A stretch of DNA of 64,000 nucleotides. Origin: Chloroflexota bacterium (lineage in GTDB: Bacteria; Chloroflexota; Dormibacteria; CF-121). The notes below the pieces were generated by a model, which had not been told where the DNA came from, searched no databases, and was given only the letters and a program-made list of their open reading frames with translations. Shown piece after piece: positions 22,572 through 43,448 of this stretch. The stretch's first letter is position 1, and every line of letters starts with the position of its first letter. The stretch lies in NCBI GenBank assembly GCA_005889535.1, contig VBHC01000111.1, positions 6,060 to 70,059 of the forward strand, given 5' to 3'. The position numbers and the translations under genes are program-made.

Positions 22572-23330
22572 CTACTTGACGTGGTAGGTGTTGTTGAAGG
22601 TGTCGATATCCGTGATGCCGGTTGGCACCTCGGGCACCGGGTAGTCCTGAACCGACCGGAGCACGAACTTGTAGTTGGTGTTGTCAAGCAACCATTTGAG
22701 GTCCTGAGCCTGCTGCAGCGTGACGATCACCGTGAGGCTCGAGGTGATGCCACGGGCGTTGGCGCCGCCGGCCGGCCCAACCCGGATGATCTGAAGGTTG
22801 GTAAAGGTCGTCTGCGTCTTCGTCTTCTGCTTCGCGTCCGCCGGGTTCGGGTTATAGCTGACGATGATGTCGATCCGGTCGTCGGGCTGGATGTTGCCAC
22901 CGATCCCGACCAGTTCGCCGGTTGGGATCTGCATCGCCACCATCCCCTTGGGGATGGGCAGGAAGGCCTGCTTGGCCGGCTGCACGCCGCTGGCGTCGCT
23001 CACCAGGTCATAGTCGATGATCGCCGAGTCCTTATGGATCGGAATCGCGGCAAACTTGCCGACCACGACCTCCTTGGTCCGGTAGGCAAACGGCGGTGCC
23101 TGCTCGGTCGAGTATTGCGCGATGGTCACCATGTCGGCCGTGATCTGGGTCGACGCCGGGATGTCTTTGGTCGCCACCACGGCGGGGATGTTCCTCGGGC
23201 CGGTGACCAGCGAGTTAGCGCCGCCCCCCGTCCGGCCCACCAGCAAAGCCCCTCCAAACGCCACAATGGCGAGGAAAAACCCGAAGATCAAGAGGATGCG
23301 GTTGCTCTTCGGCTTTACCTCAGTCGCCAA
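22572..23330 (-). CDS. cpaB: Flp pilus assembly protein CpaB/RcpC (SAF domain)
   Basis: N-terminal TM anchor and SAF/RcpC-like domains. TTG start at 23328..23330 with an upstream AGGAGG. Confidence 0.7.
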   Translation of the reverse strand: MATEVKPKSNRILLIFGFFLAIVAFGGALLVGRTGGGANSLVTGPRNIPAVVATKDIPASTQITADMVTIAQYSTEQAPPFAYRTKEVVVGKFAAIPIHKDSAIIDYDLVSDASGVQPAKQAFLPIPKGMVAMQIPTGELVGIGGNIQPDDRIDIIVSYNPNPADAKQKTKTQTTFTNLQIIRVGPAGGANARGITSSLTVIVTLQQAQDLKWLLDNTNYKFVLRSVQDYPVPEVPTGITDIDTFNNTYHVK

Positions 23331-23501: not shown

Positions 23502-23691
23502 GTTGGGTGCGTTACTGGCCGAGACCGCCCGAGATGTTGCAGAACACGTTCTTGACCTGGTTGCCGAGCACGATCAGAACTACGATCACGACCACCGCGA
23601 TCAAGACGAGAATGAGGGCGTACTCTACCATACCCTGCCCTTCCTCACGGTTGAGCAGCTCACGGAGGCGCAGATAAAGGTTGGTCAACAT
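23502..23691 (-). CDS. flp: Flp/Fap type IVb pilin precursor (59 aa; absent from ORF track)
   Basis: Translated by hand: MLTNLYLRLRELLNREEGQGMVEYALILVLIAVVVIVVLIVLGNQVKNVFCNISGGLGQ*. This is a Flp prepilin with a G/xxxEY processing motif and a hydrophobic helix. AGGAGGTGA sits 6 nt before the ATG. Confidence 0.8.
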
Positions 23692-25204: not shown

Positions 25205-25870
25205 ATGAGCGAACGGGCGTCCTTCATCCTCGGACGGGCGCTACCGCTGGGAGTCTTTGGCTTCCTGGTGGCGATCCAGGCCGAGCTCGCCTACTCCGGG
25301 ATCGAGCGCGCCGTCAGCGGCGAGCTGGACCGTGCCGAAGCCATGTATCTGCTCAACCGTGTCCTGACGGTGGCCTTCTTCGCCTTCCTGCTCGGGATCT
25401 ACGCCGTGCGCAGCAAGGCGATCGCCCACGATCACAATCCGCTCGCCATCGCGGTCGCGCTGATCGGCAGCTTCATCCTCTATGGCATCTTCTTGATCCC
25501 GGGCCAGCTGCGCAGCACCGACGTCTGGGTGCTCGCCTTGAGTGATATCTGCCTGGCCTGCGGCATGGTCCTCGCCCTCTACTCCCTGAGCTATCTCCGA
25601 AACCGCTTCAGCATCGTGCCCGAGGCCCGCGGACTGGTGACCAGCGGCCCCTACCGGTTCGTGCGCCACCCGATCTATCTGGGGGAGATCATCGCCGGCT
25701 TTGGCCTGGTGACGCCGACCCTCTTCAGTCTGCACGCGCTGGTCCTCGCCATTTTTGTGGCTGCCCAATTGTGTCGGACGTACTACGAGGAGCGAATGCT
25801 GCAGAGGGTGTATCCCACCTACGAGGGCTACGCCAGGCGGACCCGCCGGCTCATTCCCTTCCTCGTCTAG
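25205..25870 (+). CDS. ICMT/PEMT-family membrane methyltransferase
   Basis: Five to six TM segments and the C-terminal motif GPYRFVRHPIYLGEIIAGFG...YEERML typical of isoprenylcysteine carboxyl / phospholipid methyltransferases. Confidence 0.65.
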   Translation: MSERASFILGRALPLGVFGFLVAIQAELAYSGIERAVSGELDRAEAMYLLNRVLTVAFFAFLLGIYAVRSKAIAHDHNPLAIAVALIGSFILYGIFLIPGQLRSTDVWVLALSDICLACGMVLALYSLSYLRNRFSIVPEARGLVTSGPYRFVRHPIYLGEIIAGFGLVTPTLFSLHALVLAIFVAAQLCRTYYEERMLQRVYPTYEGYARRTRRLIPFLV

Positions 25871-25874
25871 TAGA

Positions 25875-27464
25875 TTGGCAAGCCTGGCCCGCTCCTCAGT
25901 TCCGTCCTCGCTCGAGCCAGAGGCTGACCGCTGGCTCGCCCGAGCCGTGCGCTGGCTCGACCTGCCGCATTTCTTCACCATCGCCATCTTCGTGACGATG
26001 CTGATCGCCGCCATCCAACCGGTCACCGACCCGGACTTCTGGTGGCACATCACCACCGGAAACTGGATCCTCAGCCACCACGCCGTACCGCACCAGGACC
26101 TGTACACCTTTACCGTTCCCGACCATCGCTGGATCACCCACGAGTGGCTGAGCGAAGTCGTGCTCGCGGTGCTCTATGCCGTTGGACGGCTGCCCCTGGT
26201 CAGCCTGACGCTGGGCGCCGTAACCGCCGCCGGATTCCTGCTGGTCTACCTCGCCATCGATCGCCGGGTCAACTTCGTGATCGCCGGACTCGCCCTGGCC
26301 CTCGGGGTGGCGGCAGCCAATCCCATCTGGGGACCGCGCATCCAGATGATCACTTTCGCGCTCAGCGCGCTGACTTACCTGTGGGTCAAGCGGTTTTGCG
26401 AAGGCAACAGCCGCGCGCTCTATTTCCTGCCCGCCGTCATGCTCGTCTGGGTTAACCTCCACGCCGGGTTTGTCCTCGGCTACGCGATCCTCGGCGTTGC
26501 CCTGGTGGTGGAGGGGCTGCGCTACCTGCTCCGGCGTCCGGGGTCAATGCCCCTCCCCCGATTGCGGGCCATGACGTTGGTGCTTGCGGCCTCGATCGGC
26601 GTCGCCATCCTCAACCCGAACGGCTGGGATATCTATCTCTATCCCTTCCAGACCGGGGGCAGCCCCGAACAGCAGCGGCTCATCGTCGAATGGTTCTCGC
26701 CCAACTTCCAGATGTCGCAGATCTGGGCCTTCGAGGCGATGATCTTCCTGATCATCGGCGGGCTCGCCCTGTCGCGCCGCATCGAGCCCCGCCAGTTCCT
26801 GCTGCTCCTGATCGGGCTTGGCCTCGCTCTGCACTCCGTGCGCAACCTTTCGCTGTTCATGCTCGTCGCGGTCCCCGCCCTGGCCGACTATGCCCAGCAG
26901 GCGCGCGAGCGCCTTCCCTGGCGGTGGCCGCTGCGGGTGCCGAAGACCACGCCGGTCACCTTCGTCGCCAACGTCGCCATGGTGCTGGCGCTGGTCGCGC
27001 TCGTGGCGCTGGCCAGCGTGCCCAGCGCGCTACAGCGCGTCGACGGGAAGCTGGTCGCCCGGGACTTCCCCATCAAGGCCGCGGATTTCCTCGTCCAGCA
27101 CCCGGCCCCGGGCCGCATGTTGAATGCCTACGGGTGGGGCGGCTACCTGATCTTCCGCTTATACGGTCGCGAGCCGGCGGAGCCGGTCTTCATCTTCGGT
27201 GACGCGGCGCTCTCCGGCGACGCGTTGCTGCGTGACTACGATCACCTGCAGTCACTGGGTTCGGACCAGGCCCAGTTGTTCGAGCATTACCGCATCAACT
27301 GGGTGATCTTCCACACCAGTGACCCGATCATTACCGGTCTGCGCCAGGACCACAACGCGCCCGGCCATGTCGGGTGGTTCGAGCTGCGCACCTTCGACAA
27401 GGCGACGATCATGATGCGCGACACCCCCGACAATCGCTCATACGCCGCCCGGGCAGCGACGTGA
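25875..27464 (+). CDS. polytopic GT-C-like membrane protein, family B (DPDxWWH motif), copy 1
   Basis: About 11-13 TM segments with a C-terminal soluble domain. Paralog of 39998..41569 (DPDFWWHITTGNWIL vs DPDLWWHLANGRLMV; C-terminal NAYGWGGYLIFRLY vs NYYDYGGYLLWRLY). Start uncertain; the TTG at 25875 lies just after the upstream stop. Confidence 0.5.
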   Translation: MASLARSSVPSSLEPEADRWLARAVRWLDLPHFFTIAIFVTMLIAAIQPVTDPDFWWHITTGNWILSHHAVPHQDLYTFTVPDHRWITHEWLSEVVLAVLYAVGRLPLVSLTLGAVTAAGFLLVYLAIDRRVNFVIAGLALALGVAAANPIWGPRIQMITFALSALTYLWVKRFCEGNSRALYFLPAVMLVWVNLHAGFVLGYAILGVALVVEGLRYLLRRPGSMPLPRLRAMTLVLAASIGVAILNPNGWDIYLYPFQTGGSPEQQRLIVEWFSPNFQMSQIWAFEAMIFLIIGGLALSRRIEPRQFLLLLIGLGLALHSVRNLSLFMLVAVPALADYAQQARERLPWRWPLRVPKTTPVTFVANVAMVLALVALVALASVPSALQRVDGKLVARDFPIKAADFLVQHPAPGRMLNAYGWGGYLIFRLYGREPAEPVFIFGDAALSGDALLRDYDHLQSLGSDQAQLFEHYRINWVIFHTSDPIITGLRQDHNAPGHVGWFELRTFDKATIMMRDTPDNRSYAARAAT

Positions 27465-30018: not shown

Positions 30019-31132
30019 TCCACACCGCCCGGCCGTACCAGGCGAGGCAGGCCAGCAGCACCACCGGTGCCAGGTTGACCAGCGGCCGTCCCAGGTCGAC
30101 GAGCAGGGCCAGCGCAATAGCGAGGCAGGCTGGCGCCGGGCTGGGCACCGCCCCCGCACGGTAGAGGACGAACCCGAGCCAGGCCGGCACGACCAGGAGG
30201 ACGGTGTCGTAGGGCAGCGCATGCGGAGAGAAGCCGATGGCGATCCCGGTCGCCAGGGTGGCGACGGCGATCGAGCTCCGGTGACGAATGGCAATTGGCG
30301 TCAGCACCGCCAGGACGACACCCCACATGGCGAAGCCGACGATGGTCGGCAGCGGTCCGGGAAGCAGGGGCGCGATGGTCGCGATCAGGCTCTCGTTGTA
30401 GCGCACCACGCCCTGGCCGGCGTCGAGGGCGCTCCAGACCATGGCCAGCAGACCGGATGGACCGCCGGCGAGCATCGGGCTGAGGCCCACGACGACGGCG
30501 CCCCCCATCGCCGCGCCCAGCGCCCGCCACTGGCGCCGGGCGCCAAGCAGGATCAGGTAGGCCGGCAGATACTGCGGCTTGAGCGCCAGCAGCAGGCCGC
30601 CAACGAAAGCCAGGCGCCATGAATCCCGGCACCAGGCACCGATGAGAAGGACTGCCCCCAGGAGAAGCAGCGCCGTTGACTGGCCCTCCGAGAGAAGAGC
30701 CCAGGTCGCCGGAAAGCCGAGCAGCCCCAGGAGCGCGATGGCCGGCGCCCGCCGGCCAAGCGGCAACCATCGCCCCATCAGGACGAGCGACAGGCAGAGC
30801 AGAAGAAGCGTGATGAGCTGCCAGGCGTGGAAGGCCACCTCCAGCGGAAGAAATGTCAGCGGCACCAGGGGCAACGCCCCTGCCAGCGGGGCGTCGAACG
30901 GGAGCCGCGGGTCAATCGCGTTGTCGGACAGGCGCAGCATCAGCGGGCCGAGTTGATCGGTCTGGTAGATGGCGTCCGGCCGGCCCTCGCGGATCAGCAG
31001 CGCCGCCGAATAGGTGATCGTGAAATCGGCGCTGCGGCGGGCGAGGCTGGACTCACGGCCCACGACGAGCAGGCCGGCGATCACGAACCCGACCGCCACG
31101 GCCATCGTCCACCGCTGCCAGCGGCCGGTCAT
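29978..31132 (-). CDS. GT87/DUF2029-like GT-C glycosyltransferase, copy 4
   Basis: Motifs ADFTITYSAALLIREGRPDAIYQ and LLLALKPQYLPAYLIL. Its 3' end overlaps the convergent copy 3 by 41 nt. Confidence 0.6.
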   Translation of the reverse strand: MTGRWQRWTMAVAVGFVIAGLLVVGRESSLARRSADFTITYSAALLIREGRPDAIYQTDQLGPLMLRLSDNAIDPRLPFDAPLAGALPLVPLTFLPLEVAFHAWQLITLLLLCLSLVLMGRWLPLGRRAPAIALLGLLGFPATWALLSEGQSTALLLLGAVLLIGAWCRDSWRLAFVGGLLLALKPQYLPAYLILLGARRQWRALGAAMGGAVVVGLSPMLAGGPSGLLAMVWSALDAGQGVVRYNESLIATIAPLLPGPLPTIVGFAMWGVVLAVLTPIAIRHRSSIAVATLATGIAIGFSPHALPYDTVLLVVPAWLGFVLYRAGAVPSPAPACLAIALALLVDLGRPLVNLAPVVLLACLAWYGRAVWIRRRRPPRVAQAA

Positions 31133-32730
31133 CGGGTCACCTCGAAGAGCGCCGCGCCGCCCTCACGCTCGATCAGCCGAAGTCCAGGGTCACGCTCGAG
31201 GCTGCCGGTGGCCTCGCCGTCGGTGGTGAGCACATAGTCGATATGGTTGGCCGCGAGAAACCTGGCGCGCTCGACCTGGTCCCAGTCATGAAAAAAGGCC
31301 AGCGCTTCGGAGGACTTGCGGGGGGCATCGATCGTCATCTCCGGGTGGCCGGCGAAGACGCGGGCATCGGTCTGCGCCGGGACGAAGATGCCGTCGAGGT
31401 AGGTGGTCAGCACCAGATCCCGGGCCGATACCTGCGGGGCCAGCCGCGCCAGGAGCACGGCTTCCGCGCGGCTCTCGTACTCCGCCCGCGGATCCAACCG
31501 GAAGCCCGCGACCCAGTACGCCTGAGCGAGGCTGAAGATTCCAAAAAAACTCGAGGCCGTGAGCGCCACAGCCAGCAGCCGCCGCCGCCAGCGAAGCCCC
31601 CGAACTTCGCGCAGCAGCGCAAGCAGGCCGGGCGTTGCGCACAACCCGAATGGGATGGAGCTGGCCATGAAACTGCGGCCCAGAACTCCGCTGATGCCGG
31701 GCGAAAACATGAAGATCGTCATCCCCGCGATCCACAGCGCGGGGAGCAGAAGATCACCGCGAAGCCGGCGGCGCCAGATCGCCACGACGATCAAGCCGCT
31801 GGCCATCAGGTGCGAGAGGACCAGGAACCCGAACGGATCGCCCACCTCCAGCACCGGACGGATCACCGACAGAGCGGCGGGCGTTGTGCGCCAGACCCAG
31901 AACAGATAGATCAGATATGGCAGCTGCACCAATGCGCCGGCTAACGCAAACCAGCCGGCGTGGCGATGCCGCCGAACGATCGACCAGCCCAGCAGCGCGC
32001 CCACGGCGAGAAGGGCGAGCTGCGGATAGATCAGCTGCAGGCCCAGGATTGCCGCGATTCCACCGAGCAGCCAGCGCCGGCTGGCGCGATGACGCAGGCG
32101 GAGCCCGGCCACCATCGTCAAACACATCAGCGCCATGGCCCAGGACAGATGCGGCGCCATCGCGATCAGGTCCGCCACGCTGGTGCCAGGGACGCTCATC
32201 TCGGTGGCACGGGTGACGACCGGCCCGATGTGGACCTCGCTCGGCAGGAGCGCGCCGACGCCGCCCCCCAGGACGCAGAGCAGGAAGGCCCAGCGGCGCA
32301 GCAGCCGTGGCCGAAACAATTCCCCGGTCAGCATGAAGACCGCGGCCAGTAGGGCTCCCGCTGCGGCCACCCGCGCGAGGTGATAGAGCCATGGCCCGGC
32401 CGCCCAACCCAGCAGGTGAGCCGGCCACAGGTACCAGGAGTAGAGCACGATGCCGGGCAGGGTCTCCGCTGTGAACGCGGAGTGGAAGAGCCAGGCGCCC
32501 TGCCAGCCGGTGCGCCACATCGCCTGGTAGACGTACGCGTCGCGGGCGATGACGACGTATCCGGAGAACACGCTGTCCGCTGGCACGCGAATGGCGGCGA
32601 GCGCGATCGGCGGAATCGTGAGCAGGCAGAGCACGGCACCGACGACCGCCGGCCACCGCCAGGCTGCCGGACCGCGCCTCGTCCGGGGGTTTTGCTCAGC
32701 CACCGCCCAGCGGCGCGCGGCGAAGGCCAT
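31129..32730 (-). CDS. ArnT/PMT-like (GT39/GT83-type) GT-C glycosyltransferase with C-terminal extracytoplasmic domain, copy 1
   Basis: First-loop motif YVVIARDAYVYQAMWRTG resembles the ArnT/PMT D-E-x-x-Y...R signature. Paralog of 35322..36953, including the C-terminal domain. Coupled to its neighbours by 4-nt and 1-nt overlaps. Confidence 0.5.
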   Translation of the reverse strand: MAFAARRWAVAEQNPRTRRGPAAWRWPAVVGAVLCLLTIPPIALAAIRVPADSVFSGYVVIARDAYVYQAMWRTGWQGAWLFHSAFTAETLPGIVLYSWYLWPAHLLGWAAGPWLYHLARVAAAGALLAAVFMLTGELFRPRLLRRWAFLLCVLGGGVGALLPSEVHIGPVVTRATEMSVPGTSVADLIAMAPHLSWAMALMCLTMVAGLRLRHRASRRWLLGGIAAILGLQLIYPQLALLAVGALLGWSIVRRHRHAGWFALAGALVQLPYLIYLFWVWRTTPAALSVIRPVLEVGDPFGFLVLSHLMASGLIVVAIWRRRLRGDLLLPALWIAGMTIFMFSPGISGVLGRSFMASSIPFGLCATPGLLALLREVRGLRWRRRLLAVALTASSFFGIFSLAQAYWVAGFRLDPRAEYESRAEAVLLARLAPQVSARDLVLTTYLDGIFVPAQTDARVFAGHPEMTIDAPRKSSEALAFFHDWDQVERARFLAANHIDYVLTTDGEATGSLERDPGLRLIEREGGAALFEVTR

Positions 32731-34104: not shown

Positions 34105-35343
34105 GTGTCGTTTCCTCCCTCCGCGGCTCGGGCGATGCCGGCTGCGCCCGCCTCACGGAAGGTTCGGCCGGCGTTCGTCGCCCAGGCCGGCTTGATCGGC
34201 TCTGCGATCGCCGTCTATCTCGTCGTCCTCGGTGCCGCCGGGTTACGCCACCAGGACCTCGCCGCCTACCTGGGCGCCGCCCGCGACATCTTTGATGGGG
34301 CGCCGCTCTACGCCACGTTCCTCCACCATCCATTCCCCGACCCGACGCTGAGGCCGGCGTTCATCTACCCGCCGGTGTTCGCCCTGCTGATCGCTCCGTT
34401 GGGGCTGCTGCCTGAGGCGCTGGCGAGCGCGATCTGGCTGTTGATCGGCCAGGCGTCACTGATCGGCGCGATCGCCCTCATCGTTCGCTGGCGAAGGCCA
34501 CCAGGCTGGGCGGTGACCACGCTGGTGCTGGCGACCCTGACCTTCTATCCGCTGTGGATCGATGCCGTGCAGGGTCAGGCGAACCTGCCAATCCTGCTGC
34601 TGGTTACCGCCGGCATCATCGGCATCGTCCAGGGCCGGCCGCGGTTCGGTGCGGCGCTGGGGGTCGCCGCCGCATTGAAGCTGACCCCGATCATCCTGCT
34701 GGTCTGGCTCGTGCTCGACCGCCGCCTTCGAGCGGCGGGCTGGATGGTCGGCGCCCTCGCCGCCCTCACCGGCGTTGGCGCGGTATTTCGCTTCCACGAC
34801 ACTGTCGTCTTTGTCGGGCAAGTCCTGCCCACCCTGGGCCACGGCACGGCCTTCTACGCCAACCAGTCGCTTAGCGGTTTTCGCGTCCGGGTTTCCAGTG
34901 CCAACCCCTACACCCGGCCGTGGGTCGAGATTCCGTGGGCCTTCCTCCTGCCTGCCGCCGTCGGCGTTCTCCTCGTCGGCGGGTGGTTCTGGCGTACGCA
35001 GCATCATTCGGGGCTGGCCCGCTGTGCCGCCTTCATACCGCTGATCCCGCTGCTGTCGTCGGTGACGTGGCCGCATCATCTTGTCATCCTGCTGCCCGTC
35101 ATCTGGTTGGGCGCCATCGCCCTCGCCGAACGCGAGTGGCCGATCATCCCCACGGTTGCCCTCGCCGGCTTGCTCTTCGTCTTCAGCGTGCTGTCCCGCT
35201 ATCCGGCCGGCCCGGCCTTTGGCCAGGCGGGTTTCCGCGATGCCCAGACCCACGACCCCATCGTGTTCGTGGCATCCAACGCGATGTTCTTTGGAACCCT
35301 GATGGTCTTTCTGGCCGCACCATGGCTGCTGCGCTCCCGCTAG
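34105..35343 (+). CDS. GT87/DUF2029-like GT-C glycosyltransferase, copy 6
   Basis: Motifs RHQDLAAYLGAARDIFDGAPLYA and AAALKLTPIILLVWLVL. Transcribed divergently from copy 5 across a 58-bp intergenic region. Confidence 0.6.
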   Translation: MSFPPSAARAMPAAPASRKVRPAFVAQAGLIGSAIAVYLVVLGAAGLRHQDLAAYLGAARDIFDGAPLYATFLHHPFPDPTLRPAFIYPPVFALLIAPLGLLPEALASAIWLLIGQASLIGAIALIVRWRRPPGWAVTTLVLATLTFYPLWIDAVQGQANLPILLLVTAGIIGIVQGRPRFGAALGVAAALKLTPIILLVWLVLDRRLRAAGWMVGALAALTGVGAVFRFHDTVVFVGQVLPTLGHGTAFYANQSLSGFRVRVSSANPYTRPWVEIPWAFLLPAAVGVLLVGGWFWRTQHHSGLARCAAFIPLIPLLSSVTWPHHLVILLPVIWLGAIALAEREWPIIPTVALAGLLFVFSVLSRYPAGPAFGQAGFRDAQTHDPIVFVASNAMFFGTLMVFLAAPWLLRSR

Positions 35344-36953
35344 ACCGGCCGCGTCCACGCCCGACCGCCCGCCGGCGACCGCGGCTCACCTTTGCCCTCG
35401 GCTTCGCTGCGGCCATCGCGGCGCTCTCGCTTCTGCCGTATCTGCTGGCCTACGCCTGGACGCCGCCTGGCCATCATTTCGCCGGCTTCTTCTTCATCGC
35501 CGACGACGCCACAACTTACCTCGCGAAGATGAGGCAGGGTGCGGACGGCTCCTGGCTCTGGTCCGATCCCTACACGAGCGAGCCGCATGGTGGCGTCTTT
35601 CTGTTCGGTTTCTATCTGCTGTTCGGCCATCTGGCCGCGCTGCTTCATCTCCCGCTGATCGCCACCTATCACCTCGCCCGGATTTCCGGCGCCCTCGTGC
35701 TCGTGCTGGCGGTCGACCGTCTCTGCCGGCGGCTGCTCCCGCCCGAGCTTCGCCGCCTCGGACTGGTCCTCGTCATCCTGGGGTCGGGCCTCGGCTTTCT
35801 CGCGCAGGCAGCGGGCAATCCCGCCATCTTTGGCACCAAGCTCGAGGCGCTCGACCTCCATCTTCCCGAGCTGAGCGGCTGGTACTCGATCATCGCCATC
35901 CCGCACTTCGCCTGGGCGACGGCGCTCATCATCGCGAGCCTGCTGGGGCTGCTGCAGATCGCCGATCGGCCTGGCCGGCGCTCCGTGGCGCTGACCTCGG
36001 CGGCGCTCCTGGCGCTCACCGCGATCCATCCCCAGATGATCCCGGTCATCGCCATCATCTGGATCGGGTACCAGGTGCTGCTGCTGGCGTGGGGCCGGCG
36101 ACCCGCATGGCGAACCCTCGCCGCCGAGATGGTGCCGTTTATCGCCACCGCGCCGCTGCTCGCCTACAACGCCTGGATCCTCTTCTCCGACCCGACCATC
36201 GCCGAATGGGCACGGCAGTGGCGCCATCAGGCGCCGGCCCCACTCAGCCTCGCGGTCAGCCTGGGGGTTCCCCTCCTGCTGGCCATCGGCGGGATGGTGA
36301 TCGTCTGGCGGCGCCGCGACCAGGGCCTGGCGCTAATGCTGACGTGGCCGCCGCTGGTCATCCTCCTCCTCTACCTTCCCAACCTGGCGAACATTCAGCG
36401 CCGGCTGCTCGACGCGCTCTACGTCCCGATCGGCATCCTGGCGGCGATCGGCCTCCGCGCCCTGACGGCCCGCCTCCGCCGCGCCTCCGCCCGCCGGGTC
36501 ACCGCCATCCTGGTGACCACATGCTGCTTCGCCTCGGCCATCGTGCTGGCCATCGCCCTGCGCTTCGCTTCGGGCGCCTTTCCCGAGGCCTACGTGGGCA
36601 ACGATGGCTGGCAGGCCATGGCCTGGCTGTCCGCGCACCATCAGGCCGGCGACCGGGCGCTTTCCTCTCCCCAGGCGGGGCAGCTACTGCCCGCCTGGGC
36701 CGGGGTCAGTGTCTACGTCGGCCACTACAGCGAAACGCTCGACTATTTCCAGAAGATCCACAACGTCGCGACCGTGCTCACCCCGGGCCAGCCGCCGGCA
36801 ACCGTGCAGGGATTTCTCAAGGCCAACGGCATCACGCTGCTGTACTGGGGACCCGACGAGGCAAAAACCGGCTTCATGCCGGCGGGGCAACCGTATTTGC
36901 AGGCTGTGCATGACGAGGGCACCGTCGTCATCTATCGGGTGATGGGAGGATAG
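35322..36953 (+). CDS. ArnT/PMT-like GT-C glycosyltransferase with C-terminal domain, copy 2
   Basis: Motif FFFIADDATTYLAKMRQG. Paralog of 31129..32730. The ATG at 35322 overlaps the upstream gene by 22 nt. The ORF-track 677-aa form is an upstream extension. Confidence 0.5.
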   Translation: MAAALPLDRPRPRPTARRRPRLTFALGFAAAIAALSLLPYLLAYAWTPPGHHFAGFFFIADDATTYLAKMRQGADGSWLWSDPYTSEPHGGVFLFGFYLLFGHLAALLHLPLIATYHLARISGALVLVLAVDRLCRRLLPPELRRLGLVLVILGSGLGFLAQAAGNPAIFGTKLEALDLHLPELSGWYSIIAIPHFAWATALIIASLLGLLQIADRPGRRSVALTSAALLALTAIHPQMIPVIAIIWIGYQVLLLAWGRRPAWRTLAAEMVPFIATAPLLAYNAWILFSDPTIAEWARQWRHQAPAPLSLAVSLGVPLLLAIGGMVIVWRRRDQGLALMLTWPPLVILLLYLPNLANIQRRLLDALYVPIGILAAIGLRALTARLRRASARRVTAILVTTCCFASAIVLAIALRFASGAFPEAYVGNDGWQAMAWLSAHHQAGDRALSSPQAGQLLPAWAGVSVYVGHYSETLDYFQKIHNVATVLTPGQPPATVQGFLKANGITLLYWGPDEAKTGFMPAGQPYLQAVHDEGTVVIYRVMGG

Positions 36954-36956: not shown

Positions 36957-38564
36957 GTGGCGATGCTCGAGCCGGTTCGAAGGCCGGCGGCGATTGTTGC
37001 TCACCGTCGATGGCCTTCGCCGGCGCTGATCGCCCAGGGACTGGCGGTCACCCTCTTTTTCTCGCTGGCCGCGCTGCGCTTTACGATCGCGCCCCTTGAC
37101 CGCTACGACGAAGGCGTCACCCTGACCAAAGCCGCCCTGACGGCGGCCGGGTCGATTCCCTTTCGCGACTACTGGATCACCTATGGACCACTGGACACAT
37201 ACGCGCTGGCCGCTGCGTTCAAAGCATTCGGGATCAACCTGGTCATCGAGCGGGCCCTGGGGGTCGTGGTGCTGGGGCTGCTGTTCCTGGTTACGTATGC
37301 AGTGACCGGGCGACTCGGGCTGCGCGGTGGCATGCGGTTGCTCCTCACCGGGCTCATCAGTGTGGTACCGATCTCGGTTCCCGCCTTCAACTCCGCGTTC
37401 CTGGCAAACCTGGTCGGCGTGTCGGCGGTGCTGGCCTTCCTCTGCGGCATCGATGACGACCGGGCGCGCTGGCCGCTGCTGGCCGGGGCCCTGGTCGGAC
37501 TGGCATCCTTCTCTCGACCCGAGTTCGCCCTTGCGCTCGGAATCGGGCTGGGCGCCGGCTATCTGGTGATGGGGCTAACGATCATGTCAGTCCGGGACCG
37601 GCTGATGCCCTATGTGCTCGGTGCCGTGAGCGTTGCCGCCGGCCTCTGGGGTGGCACAGTCCTCATGGCCGGAATCAGGCCCGTCTGGTTCGACCTGGTC
37701 ACCTATGCCACCAGCCTCTACCCGCGGGCTCGTGGCATCCCGTTCGGTCAGGGTGACGAGGCCCCCATCGTGATCGTCCTCGGCGTGGTGTTTTCGCTGA
37801 TCTGGGTCTGGGCGACCATCCGCGCCTACCGCCAGCGCGCGGTCGCCGGTGAGCGAGCCCGGCTGGCGGCGCTGCTCGTCGGCGGCATGCTGATCTTCAC
37901 CTGGGTGCGCACCCGGGCCGACGGGATTCACGCGATGGACGCCTGGCCGCTGACGGCCATCCTGCTCGCCCTGCTGCTCGAGCGCCGCGGCCGGCAGGTC
38001 CGACCGGCGACTGGCGCGCTGCCGGCGCTGGTGCCAATCGCCGGCATCCTCTTGTTGAGCCTGGGGGCGGGCGGGCTAGCCTATCGCGACCTGGCCCGGC
38101 CGCACGCCGCGGCCGGCATTCCGCACAGCGGCATCAGTGGCCAACGCGCCTGGATGCCGACGCCCGAGCTGGCCGGCGTCATTCGGGAGATCGATGCGGT
38201 CACCCCGCCCGACCGTCCCATCTGGGTCGGACTCCAGCGAAATGACCTGGTCACCTTCAACGACACGATGCTCTACTTTCTCAGCGGCAGAAAGCCCGGC
38301 ACCGTCTACTACGAGACCCTGCCCGGCCTTACCAATAGTGAGCCCGTCGAGCGGGCCATCGCGTGTCAGCTGGCGCGCGCCGGCGTCGAGTTGGCCGTGC
38401 TCGGCCCAAATGGCGCCGGCGAGCCGTGGAATCTGAGCTCAGTCAATGGGTCGCCGTATCTCGATCAGTGGTTGGCCGCTCGTACGACGGCCCGTTCGCA
38501 GCTCGGCCCCTATCTGCTGCTCAGGCTGACGCCTGGTTTGCGTCCTTCAGACCGATGTCCTTAG
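36957..38564 (+). CDS. GT-C-like membrane glycosyltransferase (DE-motif first loop) with C-terminal soluble domain
   Basis: First-loop motif LDRYDEGVTLTKAAL, ~10 TM segments and a ~170-aa C-terminal hydrophilic domain. Its 3' end overlaps the convergent GT2 gene by 44 nt. Confidence 0.5.
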   Translation: MAMLEPVRRPAAIVAHRRWPSPALIAQGLAVTLFFSLAALRFTIAPLDRYDEGVTLTKAALTAAGSIPFRDYWITYGPLDTYALAAAFKAFGINLVIERALGVVVLGLLFLVTYAVTGRLGLRGGMRLLLTGLISVVPISVPAFNSAFLANLVGVSAVLAFLCGIDDDRARWPLLAGALVGLASFSRPEFALALGIGLGAGYLVMGLTIMSVRDRLMPYVLGAVSVAAGLWGGTVLMAGIRPVWFDLVTYATSLYPRARGIPFGQGDEAPIVIVLGVVFSLIWVWATIRAYRQRAVAGERARLAALLVGGMLIFTWVRTRADGIHAMDAWPLTAILLALLLERRGRQVRPATGALPALVPIAGILLLSLGAGGLAYRDLARPHAAAGIPHSGISGQRAWMPTPELAGVIREIDAVTPPDRPIWVGLQRNDLVTFNDTMLYFLSGRKPGTVYYETLPGLTNSEPVERAIACQLARAGVELAVLGPNGAGEPWNLSSVNGSPYLDQWLAARTTARSQLGPYLLLRLTPGLRPSDRCP

Positions 38565-39282
38565 TCGGGTGTTTGCGGACACGTCCGGGGATGGCCAGCA
38601 GCTCGAGGAACATCGCCGTCGAGTCGCGGATCGGGTGCACCCGGCTCTGCGGCGAGTTGATCCAGCGGGTCGGCACCTCAACAACCTGGTAGCCGGCGTG
38701 CTGCGCTCGGTAGAGCACCTCCACGTCGAAGCCGAAGCCTCGGGTCTGTAGCACCGGAAAGACCCGGTCCGCGACTTCCGCCGTGAATGCCTTGAAGCCG
38801 CACTGCGTGTCGTGCACGCCGCCGAGCACGAAGATGCGGACCAACCGGTTGAAGATCTTGCCCATGGTTTCCCGGTACCAGGGCTGATGCAGCTCCACCT
38901 GGGAGGACCGCAATCCGCGGGAGGCGATCGCTACTCCGGCCCCGGTGTGAAGCGGACGCAGCAGCTTTTCCATGTCATCAATGGGAACACTCAGGTCCGC
39001 ATCGCTGAACACCCGGTAACGACCACGAGCCGCCACCATCCCGAGTCGCACCGCCACGCCCTTGCCGGCATTCCGCTCCGCGACGACCAGCTTCAGCTGC
39101 GGCCAGCGCTTCGCCCGCTGCGCAACAACTTCGGCTGTGGCATCGCGGCTGCCGTCATCGACCACGATCACCTCGGCGGTGAGGCCTGCGCGCTTGAGGT
39201 AGGCCTCAATCCGGTCCAGGGTGGCGGGCAGCCGCAGCGCTTCGTTGAAGGCCGGGATCACGATTGAAATCTCCGGCGTCAT
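38521..39282 (-). CDS. GT2 polyprenyl-phosphate hexose synthase (DPM1/ALG5-like)
   Basis: IVIPAFNE, VVDDGSRD, GKGVAV and DADLS motifs. Soluble, ~250 aa. Confidence 0.7.
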   Translation of the reverse strand: MTPEISIVIPAFNEALRLPATLDRIEAYLKRAGLTAEVIVVDDGSRDATAEVVAQRAKRWPQLKLVVAERNAGKGVAVRLGMVAARGRYRVFSDADLSVPIDDMEKLLRPLHTGAGVAIASRGLRSSQVELHQPWYRETMGKIFNRLVRIFVLGGVHDTQCGFKAFTAEVADRVFPVLQTRGFGFDVEVLYRAQHAGYQVVEVPTRWINSPQSRVHPIRDSTAMFLELLAIPGRVRKHPTKDIGLKDANQASA

Positions 39283-40001
39283 GCGGCCTTCTCCACTTTC
39301 CGCATCTCGGCTTTGAAGGCGAGCAACTCACGGAAGGCGCGTGCCACGACACGCAGGTTGGCGCCGGTCTGTTTGCCGGACATGCGCGGATAATGGTGCA
39401 CCGGCACTTCCACGATGCGGGCATGCATCTGGCGGGCCAGGACCAGCACCTCGGTATTGATCAGGGCGCCATCCGAATGCAACGCCATGCGGGCAAGGAG
39501 ATCGCGCCGGATCAATTTGAAGGCGCAGTTGACGTCGCGCACCAGCCGGCCGAAGATGAGCCGCACCAGCGTGAAGAAGGCCCAGGCGTTGAGCCGCCGA
39601 AGCAGCGGGTCGCGGCGGCGCTTGCGGTACCCGGCCACGATATCGGCGTCGGCCGCCCGGGCGAGCAGCTGTGCGACCTCCACGGGATCAAACTGGTTGT
39701 CAGCATCCATCAGGAAAATCCAGGGAAACCGCGCGGCCTGGAATCCCGATCGCAGCGCGGCGCCGTATCCGCGATTGACCGGGTGGCGAACCACCCGCAG
39801 GTTCGGATGAGTGGTCTTGAGCCGGTCCAGCACGGCCGGGCTGCCGTCCTGGCTGCCGTCGTCGACCACGACGATCTCGAAGGCGCGAGCATGCCTCTCG
39901 AGCGCCTTCGCCATCCGGCCGACCGATTCCTCCAGGTTGGCGGCCTCGTTGAAGGCCGGCAGGACGGCGCTGATCTCCACCGATGACGCAACGGCGGTCA
40001 T
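39279..40001 (-). CDS. GT2 polyprenyl-phosphate hexose synthase (GtrB/Dpm1-like), second tandem copy
   Basis: LPAFNE, VVDDGSQDGS, NRGYGAAL and MDADNQ motifs. 4-nt overlaps with the genes on either side. Confidence 0.7.
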   Translation of the reverse strand: MTAVASSVEISAVLPAFNEAANLEESVGRMAKALERHARAFEIVVVDDGSQDGSPAVLDRLKTTHPNLRVVRHPVNRGYGAALRSGFQAARFPWIFLMDADNQFDPVEVAQLLARAADADIVAGYRKRRRDPLLRRLNAWAFFTLVRLIFGRLVRDVNCAFKLIRRDLLARMALHSDGALINTEVLVLARQMHARIVEVPVHHYPRMSGKQTGANLRVVARAFRELLAFKAEMRKVEKAA

Positions 40002-41569
40002 GGAGCGAAGCCTACTCGGGTGAAAACGGTGGCCACCCGATCACGGCTAAACAGCTGCCATTCCGGGTTCTGCCCGAGCAGTCCGACGAGGGGATGCCCG
40101 TTCGGCAGCACGATCGCGTCCGGGTCGGCGTCCGCGATAACCGAAGGCCAGCCCTCGGCCAGGTAGCTCACGCGCAGGTATCGGCTGAAGAGCGCCGATC
40201 CGTAGACTTCCACCCGACCATCGATGAAGATGCGGCTCCCCTGGGGATAGAGTCGCCACAGCAGGTAGCCGCCATAGTCGTAGTAGTTGAAGATGCGGAT
40301 CGGTTTCCCGATGGCCTGGAGCGCATCCGTCGCCTGCACCGGAAAGACCGAGGCGATGGCGTCCGCCTCATCGGCGGAGCGGAGATTCGGGAGGGCGCGG
40401 TAGGTGATCATGACGACAACGGCCACCACCAGCAGCGCCAGGTTGAGCACCCCAAGCGCGGCAGTGGGAGGGTTGAGCCGGATCGGCGTCCAGCGCAACG
40501 CCGCCTGGGCGGCCGGTCGGCGGACGGCCGTGGGCAGGATCGCCGAGAGGGTGACGAGCAGCGCCTGGGCGCCGCGAGCGGCGAGCGGCGCCGCGCCGAT
40601 GACGAACAACGGTACGTTGCGCTGCGATGCCAGCGCCAGGTACAGAAGGGCGAAGGCCCACAACCACTCGTGCGTGCGGGCCTTGACCTTCCCGGTCGCC
40701 AGCCCACCCAGGATAAGGAAGACGATCGCTTCGAACATCACGCCGGCCATCGAGTGGAAGTCCGGCGATGCCCATTCCTGGATGTTGTTCTGGATCAGGG
40801 GCGACGTCAGCGTGCCCAGCGGAAACAGCAGGGTCTGGACACCCGACGGGTTGACCACGGACAGCAGCGTCCCGGCCCCGATCGCCGACCCGAACAGGAT
40901 CCGGCGTCGCGCCGGCATCCCGGTCGCGGGCGAACGCCGGGCATCGAACCATTCACCGATCAAAAACAGGCCGGCGATGATGACGCCCACCAGGAAGCCA
41001 GAATGCAGGTTGGCCCACAACCAGATGAAGGGCAGAAGCAGGAATGGACTGAGGCGCCCTTGCCGGTAGAAACCGAGCCCGACCACCAGCACGCCCATCA
41101 TCAGGAGGTTGAGCAGCTGGGGACGGGCTCCCCAGGCTGTCGAACCCGCAAGCGCCCCGACCAGGGTCAGCACCGCGGCCAGCGTCGGATGCAAGTTCGA
41201 CCGCCGCAGAATGACGTAGAGGCAGATGGCGCCGGCCGTCACCACGCCGGCGAAGACGGCAACCAGGAGCGGCAGGCCGCCAAGCTGGTAGAGCAGGTAC
41301 ATGGTGAGATCGGCCAGCCACTCGTGCATCACCCAGGGGTGGCCGGCGGCGCTGAAGGAGTAGAGATCGACGTGGGGAATGGTGCCGGTCGTGACCATGA
41401 GGCGCCCGTTGGCCAGGTGCCACCACAGGTCGGGATCCAGCGGGGGCACCGCGGCCAGGCTGAAGATCGCCGTAAAAAGGAGCCAGCGAAGAACAACCGC
41501 GCTGCTAACCCGGCGCAGCGCGCCGACGACGACAGGCATCAGGGCATGTAACGAGCGGGTGACGGGCAT
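39998..41569 (-). CDS. polytopic GT-C-like membrane protein, family B (DPDxWWH motif), copy 2
   Basis: Motifs LDPDLWWHLANGRLMV...HEWL and the C-terminal NYYDYGGYLLWRLY. Paralog of 25875..27464. Confidence 0.55.
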   Translation of the reverse strand: MPVTRSLHALMPVVVGALRRVSSAVVLRWLLFTAIFSLAAVPPLDPDLWWHLANGRLMVTTGTIPHVDLYSFSAAGHPWVMHEWLADLTMYLLYQLGGLPLLVAVFAGVVTAGAICLYVILRRSNLHPTLAAVLTLVGALAGSTAWGARPQLLNLLMMGVLVVGLGFYRQGRLSPFLLLPFIWLWANLHSGFLVGVIIAGLFLIGEWFDARRSPATGMPARRRILFGSAIGAGTLLSVVNPSGVQTLLFPLGTLTSPLIQNNIQEWASPDFHSMAGVMFEAIVFLILGGLATGKVKARTHEWLWAFALLYLALASQRNVPLFVIGAAPLAARGAQALLVTLSAILPTAVRRPAAQAALRWTPIRLNPPTAALGVLNLALLVVAVVVMITYRALPNLRSADEADAIASVFPVQATDALQAIGKPIRIFNYYDYGGYLLWRLYPQGSRIFIDGRVEVYGSALFSRYLRVSYLAEGWPSVIADADPDAIVLPNGHPLVGLLGQNPEWQLFSRDRVATVFTRVGFAP

Positions 41570-41583: not shown

Positions 41584-42306
41584 TCATCGGGGCTCGCGCA
41601 TCACCCGCAGGACGAATTGCGGCAGGGCCAGCATGCGTCGCCAGCGCCAGGGCTCCCGGCGCAGCCGATGGAGCCATTCCAGACCGCTGTCGCGCATCCA
41701 GCGAGGAGCGCGCCGAGCTCGACCGGAGATGAAGTCGAAGCTTCCGCCCACCCCCATTCCGACGACGGCGCCGGAACGGGCGAGGTTGCGGGCGAGCCAC
41801 GCCTCTTCCGCGGCCGCGCCGTAGGCCAGGAACAGCAACTGGGCGCCACTCGACCGGACGGCTTGCGTGGTGGCGGGGTCGTTCCCCGGATCCGGCGAGC
41901 CGGCGTGCGTCCCGGCCAGGGTGAAGCCGGGATAGCGCTGGCGGAGCGCGCGGCCGGCCGCCTCCGCGACGCCCGGCCCGCCGCCGAGAAAGAAGAAGCG
42001 CCATCCGTCGCGGGCACCGCGGGCCGCGAGTGCCGTGACGAAATCGACGCCCGCCAACCGGTTGGGGAGCCGGTACCCCAGCCGCCGGGCCGCCCAGAGG
42101 ACGCCAGCGCCGTCAGCCAGCGCCAGGTCGGCGCGACGCAGGATGGCCGCGAAGTCGGGGTCGCGCTCGGCTTGCATGATCCGCTCGGGATTGACGCTGA
42201 TCACCAGGCGGGGCCGCCCCTCCGTCAGCGCCCGGGCCACCCACTCGATCGCCTCCGCCTCGCTGAGTGGGTCGATCGGAACCCCCAGCAGGCTGAACCG
42301 CGTCAC
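41584..42306 (-). CDS. WecB/TagA/CpsF-family glycosyltransferase (GT26; N-acetylmannosaminyltransferase-like)
   Basis: ~240 aa with the LLFLAYGAAAEEAWL...SFDFISG pattern typical of TagA/WecG. Confidence 0.7.
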   Translation of the reverse strand: MTRFSLLGVPIDPLSEAEAIEWVARALTEGRPRLVISVNPERIMQAERDPDFAAILRRADLALADGAGVLWAARRLGYRLPNRLAGVDFVTALAARGARDGWRFFFLGGGPGVAEAAGRALRQRYPGFTLAGTHAGSPDPGNDPATTQAVRSSGAQLLFLAYGAAAEEAWLARNLARSGAVVGMGVGGSFDFISGRARRAPRWMRDSGLEWLHRLRREPWRWRRMLALPQFVLRVMREPR

Positions 42307-43448
42307 GCGGCGAATGCCTGCCGGTAGACCTCCGCCGTTTCACGGCCGAGGCGTTCAATGCTGAACGCCTTCGACCGTTGAAGGCCGGCATTCCGAAGAC
42401 GGGACTGCTCATCATCGAAGCGCAGCAGGCGTTCCATTGCCTGGGTCAGCTCCTCCACGCTCTCCGTGCGCAGCACCACGCCCGCCTCATCGACCAGCTC
42501 GGCCAGGGCCTCGGCCGAAGACACGATCACCGGGGTGGCGCACGACATCGCCTCCAGCACCGGCAGCCCAAAGCCTTCGTAGCGGGACGGATAGACGAAG
42601 ATCGACGCGCCGCTGTAGATCGCGGGCAGAGCATCGCGCGGGATGTAGTCCAGCGCAATCACGTGGCTGCGCGGTCCCGCCTGGCGTACCTGCCGCGCCA
42701 GTCGCTCGGCTCCCCGGTTGGTCCGGCCGACGAAGACTAGCGCCGAGTCGTCCGTGAGATCAGGTGGAAGCAGCTCATAAGCGGCCCGCAACCGGGCAAG
42801 GTCTTTGCGCGGATCGATGGTGCCGACGTAGAGGACATACCGCTCCGGTAACCCGAAGCGCTTGCGCACGGCGGCGACCTCGTCCGCCGGCCGCGGTTTG
42901 AAGGTCGCGTCGGCGCACAGCGGGACATAAGCAACCCGCTCCGGCGCGATATGGTACAGGTCGATGACCTGCCGGCAGACCGCTTTGGATGAGACCATGA
43001 CCCGTTGCGCCCGCCGAATGCTCCGCGGGCCGAGCATCCCGAAGTACCAGCGGGCACGCGGATGCAGGTCGTCAGGGCGGATCCGATAGGCGAGGTCGGG
43101 CACGCTCAGCACCAGCGGGACGGCGCTCAGCAGAGGCGCCACGCCGAGCACCGAGTGCAACAGCCGCAGGGCGCGGGGATACGCTCCAAAACGCCAGGGG
43201 AGCGACCATTGTTCGCGGCCCATCCGCAAGCCCCGTGGCACGCGCCGAAAAGGCACGACTCGATGACCCTGGAGCGCGTCCTGAATGTGGGGGATGACAT
43301 CGCTGGGAGCCAGGACGTCGACCGAGGCCCCGACCTGGTGCAGGCCGCGAAGGATGTGCAGCGCATGATGCTCGAGACCGGTAAACGGCTGAGCCGCAAA
43401 CAGGAGGTCGACCGCGATGCCATCCGGGACGGCATTCTTCGCCGACAT
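42303..43448 (-). CDS. GT4 (GT-B) glycosyltransferase
   Basis: C-terminal EGFGLPVLEAMSCATPVIVS motif (E-x7-E). Confidence 0.75.
   Translation of the reverse strand: MSAKNAVPDGIAVDLLFAAQPFTGLEHHALHILRGLHQVGASVDVLAPSDVIPHIQDALQGHRVVPFRRVPRGLRMGREQWSLPWRFGAYPRALRLLHSVLGVAPLLSAVPLVLSVPDLAYRIRPDDLHPRARWYFGMLGPRSIRRAQRVMVSSKAVCRQVIDLYHIAPERVAYVPLCADATFKPRPADEVAAVRKRFGLPERYVLYVGTIDPRKDLARLRAAYELLPPDLTDDSALVFVGRTNRGAERLARQVRQAGPRSHVIALDYIPRDALPAIYSGASIFVYPSRYEGFGLPVLEAMSCATPVIVSSAEALAELVDEAGVVLRTESVEELTQAMERLLRFDDEQSRLRNAGLQRSKAFSIERLGRETAEVYRQAFAA

Follow-up and report, generated by a model that had tools for sequence, protein, structure and literature searches.

Lipid-donor glycosyltransferases (GTs) of the GT-C type build or decorate most bacterial surface glycans. 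Among them, the ArnT/STT3 structural class is an established classification (cited in PMC11127046), and systems composed of a GT2 enzyme, a flippase and a GT-C enzyme transfer single sugars from polyprenyl-phosphate on the outer side of the membrane (PMC11127046, PMC8035078). A pilin can be the acceptor of such an enzyme: TfpW of Pseudomonas aeruginosa group IV, a GT-C enzyme encoded beside pilA, glycosylates the pilin (bioRxiv 10.1101/2020.04.19.049825) and is a pilin arabinosyltransferase with polyprenyl-phosphate-D-Araf as donor. New GT-C families are given CAZy numbers once one member has been characterised, as happened with GT136 in 2024 (PMC11127046). Here we analyse a 64,000-nucleotide stretch, hereafter the window, of the Dormibacteria assembly GCA_005889535.1 (contig VBHC01000111.1, positions 6,060 to 70,059, forward strand), which encodes two paralogous membrane proteins, A and B; the name family B is used for the membrane-protein family that holds both. 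Paralog A (39998..41569, minus strand) is an open reading frame (ORF) of 523 aa predicted to specify a GT-C(A) glycosyltransferase with 11 transmembrane (TM) helices, and paralog B (25875..27464, plus strand), an ORF of 529 aa, is the more typical representative of the family at large. Family B is a large GT-C(A)-fold family of predicted integral-membrane glycosyltransferases that no database names, and we propose, with a probability of roughly 0.6, that it forms the GT-C part of a three-component single-sugar system, which would probably target Flp pilins.

In single-sequence searches neither paralog has a match in Pfam, NCBIfam or the PDB sequences; profiles of 21 and 42 sequences likewise retrieved no annotated match, and 42 members scanned singly against Pfam gave none. 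Every source name attached to the homologues is 'hypothetical protein', and no description of the family was found in literature searches. Searched with a profile, 1.84 billion cluster representatives yielded 34,117 family B representatives at E <= 1e-3, the loosest cut-off, which may take in neighbouring GT-C families, 24,074 at E <= 1e-10 and 8,850 at E <= 1e-30. The family thus has thousands of members and no Pfam or NCBIfam model. When each GTDB species is represented by one genome, relatives of family B are encoded by 421 stretches that contain the strict motifs; these belong to Dormibacterota, Chloroflexota (mostly Anaerolineae) and Acidobacteriota (Pyrinomonadaceae and Terriglobia). The family is also present in one deltaproteobacterial genome and is plasmid-borne in cultured Phyllobacterium, Pararhizobium, Methylobacterium, Azospira, Sulfuricystis and Granulicella. 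An earlier reading of this DNA, made from the letters alone (the sequence-only reading), had suggested surveying how widely the family occurs; the survey reveals a very large family spread over several phyla. The two paralogs share 30% identity across 492 residues (E = 1e-53), and the nearest named relatives of both are metagenome assemblies labelled 'Chloroflexi bacterium' or 'Candidatus Dormibacteraeota'. By score, 45 of the 48 distant genomic homologues are nearer to B than to A, and paralog A is a Dormibacterota-specific duplicate.

The AlphaFold2 (AF2) model of paralog A, computed from a 150-sequence alignment, has a mean predicted local distance difference test score (pLDDT) of 95.8 and a predicted template modelling score (pTM) of 0.93. 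It supersedes a first model from 21 sequences, with a mediocre pLDDT of 73.4, for which ArnT, STT3 and AglB were about equal. When the model is compared with the PDB by Foldseek, the top 25 matches are all GT-C enzymes except for one transporter match (prob 0.11). Eukaryotic STT3 subunits occupy the top nine entries (E = 3e-7 to 6e-6, query TM-score 0.50-0.56) and are joined by ArnT 5f15 (E = 8e-6, 0.48), AglB (E = 8e-6 to 2e-5, 0.51), the C-mannosyltransferase DPY19 (E = 3e-5 to 7.5e-5, 0.51-0.54) and PglB 3rce (E = 5.6e-5, 0.50); AftA, AftD, AftB, a partial Pmt1 and PimE come next in the ranking. Judged by the model, family B is a GT-C enzyme of the ArnT/STT3 structural class, with STT3 ahead only narrowly. 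Since ArnT, AglB, DPY19 and PglB match nearly as well, the fold alone does not single out oligosaccharyltransferases (OSTs). The description of these proteins as a compact, divergent GT-C family in the sequence-only reading is therefore borne out by the high-confidence model and by GT-C matches throughout the top of the Foldseek list, whereas the comparison with PglB and AglB structures, which it had proposed as a check for OST likeness, supports GT-C in general and places STT3 only marginally before ArnT and DPY19.

Hydropathy, the positive charge of cytoplasmic loops and the helices of the model predict an inside N-terminus, 11 TM helices and an extracytoplasmic C-terminal alpha/beta domain of ~125 aa. 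Two motifs drew attention to the paralogs. The first is DPDLWWH in A (residues 45-51; 41417..41437, minus strand), where it starts the first external loop, and DPDFWWH in B (residues 52-58; 26028..26048, plus strand); the second, which opens the C-terminal domain, is NYYDYGGYLLWRLY in A (residues 428-441; 40247..40288, minus strand) and NAYGWGGYLIFRLY in B (residues 417-430; 27123..27164, plus strand). Translated in all six frames, the entire window contains DPD.WWH twice, once in each paralog, and Y.[YW]GGY also twice, both times inside A or B. The positions originally assigned to the motifs hold. The coordinates agree with hydropathy and AF2 helices in placing DPD[LF]WWH directly behind the first hydrophobic helix, and the second motif stands at the start of the C-terminal soluble domain, ~30 residues past the last TM helix, in A at a strand-to-helix junction of that domain (AF2 strand at 425-428, helix at 430-440).

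Both motifs are conserved far above chance among 150 diverse homologues with a mean column identity of 20% (counts below are out of 150 and residue numbers are those of paralog A). The first external loop holds D45 (132), D47 (149), W49 (123), W50 (140), H51 (143) and G55 (148), followed by P65 (133), D68 (142), W79 (146), H82 (120), E83 (121) and W84 (144). The loop after TM3 has R149 (147), in the context W-G-x-R-P-Q and with no conserved acid, and a W-x-N-L-H-G motif contributes W185 (150), N187 (149) and H189 (148). N240 (131), P241 (150), I263 (121), E265 (143) and W266 (143) lie in a long external loop, and R317 (150) is in a late TM segment. In the C-terminal domain the second motif, with the family consensus F-N-x-Y-x-W-G-G-Y-L-I-W, retains N428 (131), Y430 (137), W432 (114), G433 (148), G434 (147) and Y435 (142), and the element V-F-I-D-G-R-x-D-x-Y-G-D retains D450 (125), G451 (140) and R452 (124). 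According to hydropathy and the AF2 helices, the conserved polar residues are all in loops predicted to face outwards, and D47 is the predicted catalytic aspartate.

For comparison with OSTs, viral contigs were scanned for W-W-D-Y-G-Y, two candidates were confirmed against STT3/AglB PDB chains, and a metagenome scan then gave 80 loci, from which 64 full-length AglB/STT3-like proteins were used as the OST profile. After TM1 these 64 proteins read L-G-P-D-L-D-P-W-L-F-L-R-Y-A-K-x-I-V-E-N-G-S-L-P-x-x-D. Residues 20-135 of family B align to this profile by hhalign with a score of 38.0 (probability 58%, P = 9.9e-5), and the alignment includes a 33-column gapless match of D45-P-D47-x-W-W-H-L..G..I....I-P..D68 to D-L-D-P-W-L-F-L-R..A..I...G.L-P..D. 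None of 120 shuffles reached this score (60 column shuffles, maximum 23.2; 60 block shuffles, maximum 34.2), and reversed and PMT_2 controls gave P = 0.13-0.21. D47 is in register with the second Asp of D-L-D-P-W, that is, with the Asp of E-F-D-P in human STT3A. The E-F-D-P Asp of STT3 is the catalytic Asp of OSTs. The proposed likeness of the first motif to the D-x-D of the STT3 first loop is thus supported by a gapless alignment, and, as far as profile comparison can tell, this motif is related to the OST catalytic loop. Over the full length, family B matches the OST profile with a score of 36.5 locally (P = 0.0028) and with P = 1.3e-4 globally over 507 collinear columns; the corresponding values against a PMT_2 alignment made of eight neighbours are 0.32 and 0.9, OST and PMT_2, which belong to the same structural class, match each other at P = 6.7e-4, and reversed-sequence controls lie at P = 0.14-0.9. 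Family B further shares with STT3, AglB and PglB (GT66) the GT-C(A) fold, the inside N-terminus, a soluble alpha/beta domain after the last TM helix, the gapless first-loop pattern D/E-x-D...W...L...G-x-[IL]-P-x-x-D, a conserved Arg after TM3 and an invariant Arg in a late TM segment, as well as, by eye, an N-P...I-x-E loop and the same order of strand, motif and helix followed by [VI]-D-G. It differs from them in having 11 predicted TM helices rather than 13 and ~520 aa rather than 640-870 aa.

Outside the first loop, two of the OST motifs have no supported counterpart. The W-W-D triad of WWDYG binds the +2 Ser/Thr of the sequon. When the C-terminal domain alone is aligned, the expected register is obtained, with F-N-x-Y-x-W-G-G-Y opposite F-a-H-W-W-D-Y-G-Y and V-F-I-D-G opposite T-V-L-D-G-G, but the score is just 16.1 and was reached by 21/60 and 47/60 shuffles. 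Homology of the second motif to WWDYG, attractive by eye for the similar succession of strand, motif, helix and [VI]-D-G, was dropped after these shuffle controls. Position 431, the Asp of YYDYG, is G in 35, N in 34 and D in 29 of the 150 homologues, and position 429 is variable too, so the close WWDYG likeness, with the reading Y-Y-D-Y-G, is confined to the paralog A clade. In sequence terms, therefore, the second motif resembles WWDYG only in position and appearance, and the parallel drawn in the sequence-only reading is not supported, the similarity being no better than that of shuffles and the W-W-D triad not being conserved. The second-loop acidic motif of OSTs is a metal/diphosphate ligand. 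This D-x-D/E motif of external loop 2 has no counterpart in family B, either in the conservation of the 150 homologues or by hhalign, where R149 aligns to the conserved OST Arg and the I-P-E-K-E / Y-D-N-E segment is left unmatched. The catalytic Glu of OSTs sits in the TIXE/SVSE motif of a flexible external loop. Family B conserves I263-x-E265-W in its long external loop, but in the hhalign alignment the OST Glu falls on a variable position, eight residues further upstream. Pfam STT3 matches neither paralog at E <= 10 nor any of the 42 members at E <= 0.1. By these sequence comparisons, membership of the STT3 family fails on three tested features, the second acidic motif, WWDYG and the sequence model, and the suggestion of a possibly OST-like family finds support in the fold and the first loop but not in family membership. 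As a separate observation, the AglB/STT3-like proteins used for comparison (loci L133-L212), ~900 aa long and many of them from groundwater metagenomes, have D-L-D-P-W and I-P-E-K-E loops that replace the textbook E-F-D-P and D-x-D/E.

The gene neighbourhoods of homologues point to another kind of donor. Phyllobacterium zundukense, Pararhizobium qamdonense and Sulfuricystis multivorans each have a plasmid on which the annotated order is GT2, class I S-adenosylmethionine (SAM) methyltransferase, GtrA family protein and family B homologue. The GT2s of Phyllobacterium and Sulfuricystis show matches over their full length to PgfS (E = 1e-72 to 4e-87) and to ArnC (E = 1e-52 to 1e-61), and the proteobacterial family B homologues keep D-P-D-x-W-W, R-P, W-x-N-L-H-G, N-P-Y-G, I-x-E-W and the invariant Arg, as well as N-x-Y-x-F-G-G and F-I-D-G-R. 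Triads of GT2, methyltransferase and family B are found in Chloroflexota (loci L062 and L221), and a GT2 is close upstream in further loci of this phylum (L070, L076 and L078). The methyltransferase belongs to class I SAM enzymes in Proteobacteria and Chloroflexota and is a PEMT/ICMT-like membrane enzyme in Dormibacterota. The co-occurrence of a GtrB/ArnC-like GT2, GtrA and a GT-C enzyme suggests single-sugar transfer from polyprenyl-phosphate donors, and since a methyltransferase is a frequent fourth partner, the transferred sugar may be methylated. The module of GT2, GtrA and GT-C resembles the three-component systems GtrA/GtrB/GtrC, CsbB/YfhO, PgfS/PgfM and GT136; all components are present in Phyllobacterium, Pararhizobium and Sulfuricystis, and the window itself has GT2 genes only. 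Unlike those systems, the family B GT-C is unnamed by databases, a SAM methyltransferase is a regular addition, and the suggested acceptor is an Flp pilin rather than O-antigen or teichoic acid.

Among single-sugar enzymes, ArnT and PMT_2 (GT83, GT39) are of similar size (ArnT has 537-541 residues in PDB entries), and ArnT shares the GT-C(A) fold, a small C-terminal alpha/beta domain and, by eye, a G-x-[IWL]-[IV]-P element behind the first juxtamembrane helix. As for the ArnC-type partner of ArnT, the GT2s beside the Phyllobacterium and Sulfuricystis homologues are ArnC-like over their full length, and those of the window score below the cut-offs. The first loop differs, being D-P-D-x-W-W-H in family B and of the D-E type in ArnT/PMT_2; hhalign against E. 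coli ArnT gives a probability of 0.3%, and there is no Pfam PMT or PMT_2 match. TfpW, compared by description only, is alike in that 11 TM helices are predicted, its first periplasmic loop carries an acidic motif and its C-terminal domain is periplasmic (bioRxiv 10.1101/2020.04.19.049825). It is unlike family B in its length of 646 aa, its tetratricopeptide repeat (TPR) C-terminal domain, its type IVa pilin substrate and its closest template, ArnT; the C-terminal domain of family B has no TPR match in Pfam.

The en-bloc transfer of a glycan raised in the sequence-only reading has to be weighed against these modules. A compact OST or ligase-like enzyme would move a whole glycan from polyprenyl-diphosphate to a protein or envelope acceptor, and several observations fit it: STT3 subunits lead the Foldseek ranking, the first-loop D-x-D aligns to the OST catalytic loop, the collinearity with the AglB/STT3 profile extends over the full length and finds no parallel in PMT_2, the paralog A clade has Y-Y-D-Y-G in the same pattern as W-W-D-Y-G, and a protein substrate, the Flp pilin, is encoded close by. 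Moreover, paralog A shares an operon with WecG/TagA and GT4 enzymes, typical builders of lipid-diphosphate glycans, and the pairing of WecG and GT4 with paralog A persists down to 40% identity. Nevertheless, we regard this explanation as unlikely. The second-loop acidic motif that would bind metal and diphosphate is missing, W-W-D is unconserved, C-terminal similarity does not exceed that of shuffles, there is no STT3 Pfam match, and ArnT, DPY19 and Aft enzymes match the fold nearly as well. The GtrB-like GT2 and GtrA in three proteobacterial genera point instead to monophosphate single-sugar donors. En-bloc transfer is thus made less likely by the donor module, by the lack of the second acidic motif and by the failure of W-W-D to be conserved.

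The suggested acceptor comes from a second recurrent association. One to four tandem flp genes accompany family B at 23 of the 48 distant genomic loci, and 21 of these 23 loci are from Acidobacteriota. Most of the flp genes are encoded on the family B strand, 0.2-1.5 kb further downstream, and cpaB (RcpC), secretin, cpaE and cpaF come after them. In the deltaproteobacterial genome, family B is followed by Flp 120 bp downstream, a prepilin peptidase and TadE; the Phyllobacterium family B module has, directly upstream of it, two genes annotated 'Flp family type IVb pilin'. Loci L218 and L219 repeat the window layout of tad-flp, HisKA_3, PEMT and family B, flp stands beside family B in L216 and L226 as well as in these two, and L213-215 have T2SSF and a CpaE-like gene close by. 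Because flp adjacency recurs in at least four phyla with differing gene orders, the Flp pilin is the leading candidate acceptor, by guilt by association. The repeated adjacency also yields the testable hypothesis of glycosylated Tad pili across several soil phyla, for which cultured carriers of the family exist (Phyllobacterium, Pararhizobium, Sulfuricystis and Granulicella). Literature searches found neither an enzyme proposed for Tad pilus glycosylation nor a paper tying a GT-C enzyme to flp/tad loci. In Pyrinomonadaceae, three or four near-identical tandem flp genes lie downstream of family B (e.g. L075 7581-8440 and L043 8196-8767); the tails of these Flp pilins abound in Ser, Thr and Asn (e.g. 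TTLGGNISTKINNLAAKISTTP), and N-I-S/T is present in several of them. The N-x-S/T sequon was considered as a mark of the acceptor; it is present in some neighbouring Flp pilins, is not conserved and was not used as evidence.

The same chemistry may instead serve the envelope, with a glycopolymer or lipid as acceptor in the manner of ArnT, YfhO, GtrC or the Aft/Emb enzymes of mycobacteria, and proximity to tad would then reflect co-regulated surface remodelling. This is a possibility of some weight, though we favour it less than a pilin acceptor. With five GT87 genes and three distant family B relatives in one 20-kb cluster, and with WecG, GT4 and GT9 genes in addition, the window has the look of a polysaccharide assembly line. 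Homologues in Anaerolineae adjoin PMT_2 and a Wzy_C/TPR protein, others adjoin YfhO and GT87, and several family members have no tad neighbours. However, flp is immediately adjacent and on the same strand in Terriglobia, Pyrinomonadaceae, the deltaproteobacterial genome and Phyllobacterium, and these lineages differ in local gene order, a pattern not easily accounted for other than by action of the enzyme on the pilin or pilus. The tad adjacency could also be taken to mean that family B is no enzyme at all but a structural or accessory component of Tad pilus assembly with a GT-C-like fold. This we consider very improbable: the Asp at the catalytic position and the outward polar and charged residues are near-invariant in an alignment of 20% column identity, the partner GT2 and GtrA genes have no role in pilus assembly, and many members are encoded far from any tad gene.

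In the pathway that we infer from the observed fold, motif conservation, first-loop OST similarity and gene neighbourhoods, and which extends to catalysis, donor, acceptor and the role of each residue, a GtrB/ArnC-like GT2 would load one sugar on polyprenyl phosphate at the inner membrane face, the associated methyltransferase would possibly methylate that sugar, and a GtrA-type or other flippase would carry the lipid-linked sugar across the membrane, where the family B enzyme would hand it to the acceptor at the outer face. D47 with D45, H51, N187/H189, E265, R149 and R317 would form the active and phosphate-binding site, and the C-terminal domain, with F-N-x-Y-x-W-G-G-Y and V-F-I-D-G-R-x-D, would help to hold the acceptor. 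For enzymes of the paralog B type the acceptor would most likely be the Flp (Tad) pilin encoded next door, and the envelope glycan served by paralog A is probably this one or a related one.

A number of points weigh against single-sugar transfer to Flp pilins. STT3 is the nominal best structural match of the paralog A model. The GT2s of the window are short (240-253 aa), fall below every NCBIfam cut-off and could instead extend a lipid-linked oligosaccharide, and Pfam scans found no flippase gene in the cluster of the window. WecG/TagA relatives act on polyprenyl-diphosphate-GlcNAc, and WecG/TagA is the conserved upstream neighbour of paralog A, which would suit an en-bloc transferase too. As the Acidobacteriota loci are interrelated, there are fewer independent events than the figure of 23 of 48 suggests; many Acidobacteriota flp loci have no GT2 nearby, and the flanks examined of Anaerolineae homologues and of L220, L221 and L223 contain no tad genes. 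Finally, the Tad pilus of Caulobacter crescentus, the only one solved, was solved without glycan density (PMC10710030).

A related idea concerns ancestry. Family B may be a bacterial offshoot of STT3/AglB that glycosylates Flp pilins, having kept the catalytic first loop and lost sequon recognition, and having travelled with the tad system or been recruited to it; transfer could then be single-sugar or en-bloc. The tad pilus system is thought to be of archaeal origin. We hold this scenario with little confidence. If true, it would make the Flp/Tad pili of Acidobacteriota, Dormibacterota and some Chloroflexota and Proteobacteria glycoproteins, and the enzymes a previously unrecognised class of protein glycosyltransferase. 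Family B also offers a comparison point for the use of the STT3 active-site loop outside N-glycosylation.

Within the window, paralog A occupies the third position in a compact five-gene operon on the minus strand, GT4-WecG-familyB-GT2-GT2, whose genes overlap by 4 nt or are 14 nt apart. The first gene encodes a GT4 glycosyltransferase (42303..43448), and the second, 14 nt upstream of A, a WecG/TagA/CpsF-family glycosyltransferase (41584..42306; Pfam PF03808, E = 7e-56), which scores 139.8 bits against NCBIfam TIGR00696 (cut-off 69). A GT2 of 240 aa follows (39279..40001; Pfam Glycos_transf_2, E = 4.7e-29), its start overlapping the A stop by 4 nt, and a second GT2 of 253 aa (38521..39282) overlaps the first by 4 nt. 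Both GT2s find their best NCBIfam matches in ArnC, AglJ, PpgS and dolichyl-phosphate hexose transferases, the 240-aa protein also in PgfS, with no match reaching its curated cut-off, and on sequence similarity the GT2 at 39279..40001 is a candidate polyprenyl-phosphate sugar synthase. The operon order is kept in every complete Dormibacterota locus among L001-L032, the two GT2 genes being translationally coupled to paralog A in all of them, and a compact form is still found at ~40% identity (L218 and L222).

The remainder of the cluster is also rich in GT-C genes. Three membrane proteins, of 535 aa (36957..38564, plus strand), 543 aa (35322..36953, plus strand) and 533 aa (31129..32730, minus strand), have no Pfam or NCBIfam match and are, to judge from hhalign, distant family B relatives and probably further unnamed GT-C enzymes. 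The first is matched with a probability of 49.5% (P = 1.7e-4, 407 columns) and has 'PLDRYDEG...GSIP.RD' behind TM1; the other two are matched via the C-terminal domain, at 72% (P = 3.4e-5) and 88% (P = 3.1e-6), respectively. The 543-aa protein contains 'FIADDATTY'. Five GT87 genes are located at 27374-28672 (plus), ~28800-30018 (plus), 29978-31132 (minus), 32730-34046 (minus) and 34105-35343 (plus). GT87 is a family of polyprenyl-phosphate-mannose-dependent mannosyltransferase-like enzymes. Together with the family B paralogs and relatives, they bring the number of GT-C genes in this 20-kb part of the window to at least ten. Between the glycosyltransferase cluster and mreB/murA there is a weak GT9 (heptosyltransferase-like) gene (45960-46997, minus strand); the order GT9-WecG-familyB is kept in L218 and L222, which is unusual for a lineage that groups with monoderm Chloroflexota.

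Paralog B is preceded, at a distance of 4 nt, by a gene for a PEMT/ICMT-like membrane methyltransferase (25205..25870, plus strand; Pfam PEMT E = 3e-11, ICMT E = 1.9e-8). Such a gene is directly upstream of the B type in L218 (4463-5140), L219 (6247-7011) and L222 (14030-14569) too, and in Dormibacterota-like lineages a PEMT/ICMT-like methyltransferase always precedes the paralog B type; its counterpart in the proteobacterial and Chloroflexota modules, at the corresponding place, is the class I SAM methyltransferase. Farther out on the same side, 2.2 kb from paralog B, a motif scan located an Flp prepilin gene (23512..23691, minus strand; 59 aa; Pfam Flp_Fap 36.6 bits, cut-off 32.2), whose product reads ...REEGQG|MVEYALILVLIAVVVI...NVFCNISGGLGQ; the C-terminal tail (NVFCNISGGLGQ) contains an N-I-S sequon. 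It is followed by a tad pilus operon (15605..23330, minus strand), recognised by Pfam, that comprises RcpC/CpaB (22572-23330), a CpaE-like response-regulator/ParA fusion (21231-22490), CpaF (19712-21133), TadB (18761-19711), TadC (17831-18757) and a second T2SSE ATPase (15605-16747). A gene for a HisKA_3-type histidine kinase (24018..25103, minus strand) separates the Flp gene from the paralog B operon and is divergent from the latter. A homologue occupies the same spot in L218 and L219, another is near family B in L213-215, and in L045/046 it adjoins flp at a distance of 4-5 kb downstream of family B. Retention of HisKA_3 between flp and family B suggests joint regulation of pilus and glycosylation genes.

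Two minor observations concern the genes themselves. The window has a G+C content of 65.7%, and a 522-aa ORF at 39983-41551 (plus strand) runs antisense over all of paralog A, and the window has many similar shadow ORFs; long antisense ORFs of this kind are expected artefacts of 66% G+C DNA and not genes. Tandem duplicates of family B inside one module occur in L035, L073 and the Sulfuricystis plasmid (L229, 4524-6038 and 6046-7557), and the second Sulfuricystis copy has a degenerate C-terminal motif, D-T-L-E-A-S-Y instead of Y-x-W-G-G-Y.

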